DNA of 64,000 nucleotides from Escherichia coli O157:H7. GTDB lineage: Bacteria > Pseudomonadota > Gammaproteobacteria > Enterobacterales > Enterobacteriaceae. The translations under genes and the position numbers were made by a program. The DNA lies in assembly GCF_013167455.1 (NCBI RefSeq), contig NZ_CP038328.1; one strand, written 5' to 3'. Under the pieces are notes generated by a model. That model was not told the DNA's origin. It ran no database searches and saw only the letters and a program-made list of their open reading frames with translations. Of this stretch, positions 22,468-24,222 are shown piece by piece; position 1 is the stretch's first letter, and every line of letters starts with the position of its first letter.

Positions 22468-23106
22468 TTACTCGTCGGCAGCGTAGCCCTGCGGCGGCAG
22501 ACGTTGACCATCCAGCCACGCGGCGTTTTCGTGCATTTTCAGACGACCATCGGCAAACCAGCTAATCACCAGTGGATAAATGGCGTGTTCCTGGGTTTGC
22601 ACGCGGGCGGTGACGTCATCCTCCGTATCACCAGCAAATACCGGGACTTTCGCCTGTAAAATAACCGGGCCACCGTCCAGTTCATCGGTGACGAAATGCA
22701 CCGATGTACCGTGCTCTTCATCGCCATTTTCCAGCGCCTGACGATGGGGATGTAATCCGGGATATTTCGGCAGCAGAGAAGGGTGAATGTTCAGCAAACG
22801 CCCGGCATAGTGGGAGACAAATGCCGGGCTGAGAATGCGCATAAAACCAGCCAGCACGACCACATCGGGTGCGTACATGTCGATTTCATGAATCAACTCC
22901 CGGTCATAGGCTTCACGACTGTCAAACGCGCTGGCGATGAGCGTATGCGTTGCAATACCCGCCTGGCGGGCGCGTTCAAGGCCGAACGCGTCGGCCTTAT
23001 TGCTGAAAACTGCCCGTACGGTGCCTTTAATTTTGTTGGTTTTACAGGCGTCAATAATTGCCTGCAAATTACTTCCGTTGCCGGAAATAAGCACCACAAT
23101 ATTCAT
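22468..23106 (-). CDS. purN: phosphoribosylglycinamide formyltransferase 1
   Basis: Track ORF 212 aa; start ATG shares one nt with the purM stop. Confidence 0.95.
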   Translation of the reverse strand: MNIVVLISGNGSNLQAIIDACKTNKIKGTVRAVFSNKADAFGLERARQAGIATHTLIASAFDSREAYDRELIHEIDMYAPDVVVLAGFMRILSPAFVSHYAGRLLNIHPSLLPKYPGLHPHRQALENGDEEHGTSVHFVTDELDGGPVILQAKVPVFAGDTEDDVTARVQTQEHAIYPLVISWFADGRLKMHENAAWLDGQRLPPQGYAADE

Positions 23107-24143
23107 TATTCGATAACCACGCGTTGTTCGGAATCAGAGGCTTTGATGATACCGATTTTCCACGCGTTTTCACCGTTGGCATTGAGCAGGGCGAGGGCTT
23201 TGTCCACTTCCGGAGCAGGCAGGGCAATAATCATCCCGACGCCGCAGTTGAAGGTGCGATACATTTCATGGCGCTCAACGTTACCAGCCGTTTGCAGCCA
23301 GTTGAACACTTCCGGCCACTGCCAGGAGGATTCATCAATCACTGCCTGGGTATTATCTGGCAATACGCGCGGAATGTTTTCCCAAAAGCCGCCGCCGGTC
23401 AGGTGCGCAATGGCATTAACATCGACCTTTTCAATCAACTCCAGCACTGACTTCACGTAAATGCGGGTCGGTGCCAGCAGATGATCGGCTAATGGCTTAC
23501 CATCAAGTTCGGTGGTTTGCGGATCACAACCGCTGACTTCAAGAATTTTGCGCACCAGCGAATAGCCGTTCGAGTGCGGACCGCTGGAACCGAGTGCAAT
23601 CAGCACATCGCCGTCGCTGACTTTAGAGCCGTCGATGATTTCTGATTTTTCTACCACGCCCACGCAGAAACCCGCGACATCGTAATCCTCACCGTGATAC
23701 ATCCCCGGCATTTCTGCCGTTTCGCCACCCACCAGTGAACAGCCCGATTGCAGACAACCTTCCGCAATGCCGCTGATCACCGCTGAAGCGGTATCAACAT
23801 CCAGTTTTCCGGTTGCGTAATAGTCGAGGAAAAACAGCGGTTCTGCACCTTGCACCACCAGGTCATTAACGCACATGGCGACCAGATCAATACCAATGGT
23901 GTCGTGACGTTTTAAGTCCATTGCCAGACGCAGCTTGGTACCTACGCCGTCAGTGCCGGAAACCAGCACGGGTTCACGATATTTTTGCGGCAATGCACAC
24001 AGCGCACCGAAGCCGCCCAGACCGCCCATCACTTCCGGACGACGCGTTTTCTTCACTACGCCTTTGATTCTTCCAACCAGAGCATTACCCGCGTCAATAT
24101 CAACACCGGCATCTTTGTAGCTAAGAGAGGTTTTATCGGTCAC
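23106..24143 (-). CDS. purM: phosphoribosylformylglycinamidine cyclo-ligase (AIR synthetase)
   Basis: Track ORF starts at GTG 24158; in-frame GTG at 24143 gives the recognised [16 protein letters not shown]-terminus; PurR box upstream. Confidence 0.93.
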
Positions 24144-24206
24144 TGCTTGGGTCCCCACGCGTTACTTGCGGTAGAAAAATAAAATTCGGCGCAATTCTAA
24201 CAGGGA

Positions 24207-24222
24207 AAGCAAACGTTTGCGA
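24207..24222 (-). promoter_or_regulatory. PurR operator (pur box) in the purMN promoter
   Basis: aAGCAAACGTTTGCGa matches the palindromic pur box consensus; about 64 bp upstream of the purM start. Confidence 0.7.

Follow-up and report, generated by a model that had tools for sequence, protein, structure and literature searches.

Background

The closest described system to the locus discussed here is the purMN operon of Escherichia coli K-12 (b2499-b2500), which is served by the promoter purMp with a PurR operator and is used in a 2024 review as an example of PurR repression in E. coli (PMC10912719). In the accounts that two sources give of this regulation, PurR together with its corepressor (hypoxanthine or guanine) excludes RNA polymerase at the operator (PMC3159470, PMC10912719; citing He et al. 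1990 and Meng et al. 1990). The other pur promoters (purF, purHD, purT, purL, purEK, and purC) carry, as purMN does, a 16-bp imperfect palindrome with a central CG. The motif lies between -35 and -10 in 14 of the 32 directly PurR-regulated promoters; the control sites of purB and purR, unlike that of purMN, are found downstream of their own promoters (PMC3159470).

For the junction between the two genes, a useful comparison is offered by Huber et al. [quoted passage not shown] Those pairs and purMN are alike in being co-directional and in having a -1 stop/start overlap of the TGATG/TAATG class. They differ in that coupling was shown experimentally for the former (PMC6728339), and that for purMN we infer it.

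The locus and its K-12 counterpart

Here, we consider the same operon in E. coli O157:H7, within a stretch of 64,000 nucleotides that we will refer to as the window. All positions are those of the window, and the two coding sequences are as follows.

23106 to 24143, minus strand: purM coding sequence, 345 aa, AIR synthetase (TIGR00878 purM, 513 bits; 343/345 residues identical to K-12 PurM)
22468 to 23106, minus strand: purN coding sequence, 212 aa, GAR transformylase (TIGR00639 PurN, 279 bits; 209/212 residues identical to K-12 PurN)

This locus is the K-12 purMN operon in the form of an O157 allele. Many E. coli O157:H7-lineage chromosomes match the 2.2-kb stretch at 100% identity. Of 5426 complete E. 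coli genomes, 5425 contain the purMN locus, with a DNA identity over the 2.2 kb of at least 99% in 1036 genomes and of 95-99% in 4389. The 106-nt control region is more uniform still, being at least 99% identical in 5424 of the 5426. Gene order (upp / purM-purN / ppk), GTG start, and TAATG junction are shared with K-12, and the alignment shows identity from the pur box through the purM start codon. The differences are allelic only: H243N and H291R in PurM, T120P, S161T, and I165V in PurN (O157 allele against K-12), and, in the upp-purM intergenic region, three SNPs that each lie more than 40 bp upstream of the pur box. RefSeq annotation of both an identical O157 chromosome and K-12 MG1655 places the purM start at 24143, its end at 23106, and the purN start at 23106. 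The purN ATG is further confirmed by PDB chains of 212 aa, which match PurN residues 1-212.

It is important to remember that all wet-lab data on purMN come from K-12 and are transferred to the O157 lineage by sequence identity. As the control region is the same in O157 and K-12, the K-12 experiments apply to the window. The operator, promoter, GTG start, and junction are each already published or annotated, and the view taken in an earlier note on this DNA, that the elements it listed agree with established purine regulon behavior, is correct.

Comparison across relatives

One genome per species was scanned with a degenerate coding motif that is independent of start codon, operator, and junction, which gave 120 purM loci. 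A box was called at a score of at least 14 bits within 250 nt upstream of purM.

Enterobacterales: 28 loci; GTG 28/28; box 28/28; overlap 22/23 (11 at -1, 11 at -4)
Vibrionales: 10 loci; GTG 10/10; box 10/10; gap of 2-3 nt in 8/9
Aeromonadales: 5 loci; GTG 5/5; box 4/5; junction mixed
Alteromonadales, broad sense: 25 loci; GTG 25/25; box 0/24; junction mixed
Other Gammaproteobacteria: 37 loci; ATG 35/37; box 0/36; junction mixed

No box was called in the 10 Alpha/Epsilon loci either, which brings the count for clades without the system to 0 of 70 scanned loci, and these boxless clades provide a negative control for the PurR position weight matrix (PWM). Most boxes in Enterobacterales start 69-82 nt before the start codon, and the hexamer TAGAAT is found exactly 7 nt past the box in 29/29 Enterobacterales sequences (the window counted). 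Read as a whole, the table is a clean phylogenetic footprint of the purM promoter: box, 7 nt, TAGAAT.

The PurR operator

24207 to 24222, minus strand: PurR operator (pur box), TCGCAAACGTTTGCTT in purM orientation; supported by sequence, PWM, K-12 ChIP-chip, deletion, and conservation

On the plus strand, the box reads AAGCAAACGTTTGCGA (24207-24222). Its inner 12-mer, GCAAACGTTTGC, is a perfect palindrome centered on CG, 12 of the 16 positions are self-complementary, and there are two mismatches to the consensus ACGCAAACGTTTTCNT. The earlier note had suggested a PurR PWM scan, and this was run with a leave-one-out matrix, that is, one built with the purMN site left out, from the remaining 27 motifs that have ChIP support in Cho et al. 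2011 (PMC3159470). The box scores 17.2 bits, the third best value on both strands of the window. This is a mid-range score (the training median is 20.4), which follows from the ends of the box: it starts TCGC and ends GCTT, whereas the commoner form in the pur regulon is ACG...GCGT. Dinucleotide shuffling of the whole window yields 17.2 bits somewhere in 35 of 200 cases, so that the score by itself is not significant window-wide; in the 324-nt upp-purM intergenic region, the expectation for such a score, scaled from the shuffles, is ~1e-3.

Could the palindrome, then, be a chance match, or a site for some other LacI-family regulator, such as GalR or CytR? The shuffled windows speak for the former, as does a comparably scoring site in uraA that appears to be non-functional (discussed below), and for the latter it can be said that GalR binds the PurR operators of the purR gene. 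Against both stands the fact that PurR occupies precisely this motif in vivo: Table 1 of the K-12 ChIP-chip study gives TCGCAAACGTTTGCTT for purM-purN, with log2 occupancies of 2.08 with adenine and 0.98 without (PMC3159470). Deletion has a phenotype as well, in that a high-copy upp-purM clone without AAACGTTTGCTT shows a weaker protective PurR-titration effect (PMC3266220). Furthermore, the box holds its fixed position beside the -10 hexamer throughout the Enterobacterales and is missing from clades that lack the system. GalR cross-binding was rejected, purMN being outside the 15 GalR-bound regions. We regard the chance and other-regulator readings as extremely improbable and indeed, given the ChIP and conservation data, as refuted. 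The purM box is a PurR operator, the comparative data having removed the doubt; the near-consensus operator that had been proposed upstream of purM from the letters alone has its counterpart in the identical K-12 ChIP-chip motif, the deletion effect, and 28/28 Enterobacterales.

Three further K-12 ChIP-supported PurR motifs fall within the window, namely those of purC (ACGCACACGTTTGCGT, 47601-47616), guaBA (GCGTAACCGATTGCAT, 11202-11217), and yfgO/yfgC (CCGGAAGCGATTGCCT, 29504-29519). Counting purMN, 4 of the 28 published PurR motifs are located in the window.

A PurR-like site that is unreported lies inside uraA (ACGGCAACGATTGCGC, 25556-25571, minus strand) and, at 17.8 bits, ranks a little higher than the purMN box; in the protein, it corresponds to the peptide GAIVAV. 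Only Escherichia, Citrobacter, Enterobacter, and Leclercia retain the motif as DNA, and in other Enterobacterales it decays at synonymous positions. There is no K-12 ChIP peak at this site (PMC3159470). We considered it as a roadblock operator and rejected this; the motif is probably no more than a side effect of encoding GAIVAV.

Promoter and transcript ends

24187, minus strand: purM transcription start site (TSS), a G; K-12 NC_000913.2 position 2619175, 40 reads, 5' UTR of 44 nt, transferred via identical sequence
24194 to 24199, minus strand: -10 hexamer TAGAAT (-12 to -7), positioned from the mapped TSS and from its constant spacing to the box

The TSS is that of Kim et al. 2012, who mapped it 44 nt upstream of the GTG (PMC3415461, supplementary file 2). 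Relative to it, the pur box occupies -35 to -20. The promoter has a good -10 and no real -35 hexamer; the PurR operator sits in that place, and TCGCAA at the -35 position matches TTGACA at only 3/6 positions. A consensus promoter scan did not detect the purM promoter, because the PurR box takes the place of the -35 and the promoter falls below the threshold of the tool. A box at -35 to -20 fits repression by promoter occlusion, which is the mechanism given in the literature. The scan did return a promoter-like site inside purM (23173-23146), which was dropped as it does not coincide with the weak K-12 TSSs in that gene.

At the other end of the operon, the RNA fold points to the following element.

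22427 to 22455, minus strand: likely intrinsic terminator, an 11-bp hairpin followed by a U-run; its function is predicted from the fold

The hairpin lies just past the purN stop, at -17.7 kcal/mol (z = -2.6), and 0/200 shuffles fold as well. A terminator-pattern scan found nothing, this hairpin and U-run included. Judging from the fold, the hairpin and U-run probably end the purMN transcript before ppk. An Rfam scan of 22000-24700 returned no RNA family, the only match being a sub-threshold, chance one to CRISPR-DR12 (E = 0.23).

The upp side of the intergenic region (24373-24441) has its own, divergent control. An FNR box, TTGACTTTAGTCAA, is found at 24373-24386, and a upp promoter-like site (TTGCCG, 16 nt, TATAAT) at 24398-24425. 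A T-run in this region is presumably the site of UTP-sensitive reiterative transcription. The upp TSS is a G at 24431, which is followed by the eight T of this run (GATTTTTTTTG) and lies 37 nt before the ATG (PMC3415461).

The purM start codon

The choice of start codon had to be tested for purM, given that a mechanical list of open reading frames extends the gene to an upstream in-frame GTG.

24141 to 24143, minus strand: purM GTG initiation codon; supported by N-terminal peptides, Ribo-RET, annotation, PDB 1CLI, and conservation
24152 to 24156, minus strand: Shine-Dalgarno-like GGGGA, 9 nt before the GTG (anti-SD duplex -5.5 kcal/mol)
24156 to 24158, minus strand: upstream in-frame GTG, rejected as a start; overlaps the Shine-Dalgarno motif

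After the GTG at 24143-24141 come the codons ACC GAT AAA (T-D-K). For K-12 b2499, Table S1 (TRAINSPOTTER) of PMC13245402 lists two N-terminal peptides, one from residue 1 and one from residue 2 (TDKTSLSYK...). Both are assigned there to the annotated translation initiation site (dbTIS), a GTG at NC_000913:2621197-2621199, with Ribo-RET support, and NC_000913:2621197 corresponds to position 24143 of the window. The initiator Met of PurM is partly removed. The chain in PDB 1CLI has 345 residues and starts VTDK, and a start-anchored alignment of Enterobacterales shows the gGGga block to be conserved. The earlier note had preferred GTG 24143 and had named beforehand, as the result that would count against it, PurM N-terminal peptides at another start codon; the K-12 peptides and Ribo-RET signal given in that table map to GTG 24143 itself.

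If PurM instead started at GTG 24158, it would be a protein of 350 aa with the N-terminus MGTQAV. This is the longest listed ORF, 24158 being the first start codon past the upstream stop, and a GTG is found at the same position in Citrobacter, some Enterobacter, Serratia, and E. albertii. The K-12 peptides and Ribo-RET are at odds with it, as stated, and the purM rows listed in the table are all dbTIS, with no alternative-TIS row among them (PMC13245402). GTG 24158 also lacks a Shine-Dalgarno (anti-SD duplex of -0.2 kcal/mol, vs. -5.5 for GTG 24143) and is itself part of the conserved Shine-Dalgarno block CGTGGGGA. In most relatives it is absent or separated from the gene by a stop (e.g., NRVGI*AVTNK in Enterobacter cloacae). 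Between the upstream stop and the conserved motif, 12/28 Enterobacterales and 43/68 genomes overall have no in-frame ATG, GTG, or TTG other than the downstream GTG. A start at GTG 24158 is thus very improbable and, for practical purposes, refuted.

The conservation of GTG 24143 deserves a comment. Across Enterobacterales, Vibrionales, Aeromonadales, and Alteromonadales, purM opens with GTG in 68/68 genomes, even though a single G-to-A transition would turn it into ATG, and neighboring gammaproteobacterial lineages have ATG in 35/37. This conservation does not depend on PurR, as the Alteromonadales, which have no pur box, also have the GTG. On these comparative counts we would tentatively entertain, as a possibility and not as the favored view, that selection, and not chance, has preserved the GUG and that this weak start may serve as a long-maintained set-point, or else as a regulatory input, in the translation of AIR synthetase. 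The only result here that we would call mildly unexpected is this retention of GTG in four gammaproteobacterial orders.

The purM-purN junction

23104 to 23108, minus strand: TAATG junction; the purM TAA (23108-23106) and the purN ATG (23106-23104) share the A at 23106
23260 and 23237, minus strand: two weak K-12 TSSs assigned to purN, inside purM (3 and 7 reads, vs. 40 at the purM promoter; PMC3415461)

The one-nucleotide overlap of the purM stop and purN start, as read in the earlier note, is present in the sequence and agrees with the RefSeq annotation of both O157 and K-12. Among Enterobacterales, the junction alternates between -1 (TAATG/TGATG, 11 genomes) and -4 (ATGA, 11 genomes). Rahnella bruchi is the sole member with separated genes, 45 nt apart. 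In Vibrionales, the genes are 2-3 nt apart, and for this reason the overlap is not essential for the operon.

Whether the overlap means translational coupling is a separate question. The purN Shine-Dalgarno does not surpass what random sequence would give (-2.7 kcal/mol, vs. a mean of -2.74 for the window background). According to Burkhardt et al. 2017, purM has a ribosome density of 98.3, an mRNA level of 82.8, and a translation efficiency of 1.19, the corresponding values for purN being 39.7, 64.3, and 0.62 (PMC5318159). The two mRNA levels are therefore similar (82.8 vs. 64.3), and purN is translated at ~40-50% of purM, with a density of ~40% and an efficiency of about half. Given this gap in density and efficiency, any purMN coupling is far from 1:1. 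As PurM and PurN do not form a complex together, they need not be made in equal amounts, and their ribosome densities differ ~2.5-fold. We found no purM-purN translational coupling experiment in a literature search.

A conserved overlap, a background-level purN Shine-Dalgarno, and similar mRNA levels make purMN coupling plausible. One should, nevertheless, weigh the alternative that purN is translated independently, by de novo loading on its ATG, with the overlap reflecting genome compaction or drift of stop and start positions. The density ratio of ~0.4 is compatible with coupling and with weak independent initiation alike, and a purN density of only ~40% of purM can be counted in favor of the latter. 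So can the bioBF overlap, where initiation is de novo even though the SD is very weak (PMC6728339), and the fact that Vibrionales and several other clades keep purM ahead of purN with gaps, small or large, in between. The weak internal TSSs (PMC3415461) point the same way, and transcripts from 23260 and 23237 could feed purN without purM translation; a literature search on an internal purN promoter gave nothing relevant. As a side observation, O157 differs from K-12 by two SNPs within the 50 nt upstream of these internal TSSs. As to whether the two genes share one mRNA, the only strong TSS is the one upstream of purM, and the terminator scan showed no terminator-like site between purM and purN.

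The alternative has more difficulty with the overlap being kept in 22/23 Enterobacterales although its form varies between -1 and -4, with a purN SD that is no better than random sequence, and with coupling in 4/5 of the native overlaps tested (PMC6728339). We judge independent translation of purN to be unlikely, if still worth bearing in mind. Translational coupling of purMN is the likeliest reading, and a fairly probable one, in which coupling would be partial at best.

How the operon may work

Bringing the 5' control region and the internal junction together, we propose the following account of purMN, in which, taken in full, we have high confidence. Transcription of purM begins at 24187, from a promoter with TAGAAT as its -10 and the PurR operator in place of the -35. 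When purines are plentiful, PurR occupies the purM operator and the operon is repressed. The message carries a 44-nt leader with a moderate Shine-Dalgarno, GGGGA, and PurM synthesis starts at GTG 24143. Ribosomes that finish purM at the TAA (23108-23106) would stand on the purN ATG, and some of them may reinitiate there. Such reinitiation could supply PurN, despite the background-level Shine-Dalgarno, at ~40-50% of the PurM rate. The hairpin and U-run past purN would probably end the transcript.

Concluding remarks

As a discovery, this check of purMN carries little weight, as all of the elements listed at the outset were annotated or published. Its value is one of calibration: a tool-free reading of the letters placed the operator, a non-AUG start, and the junction to the base. 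Coupling is often assumed from overlap, and we would remind the reader that for purMN it is something we infer. The conservation of the purM GTG is a small side observation and not a new system; it suggests that there may be selection on a weak start codon.
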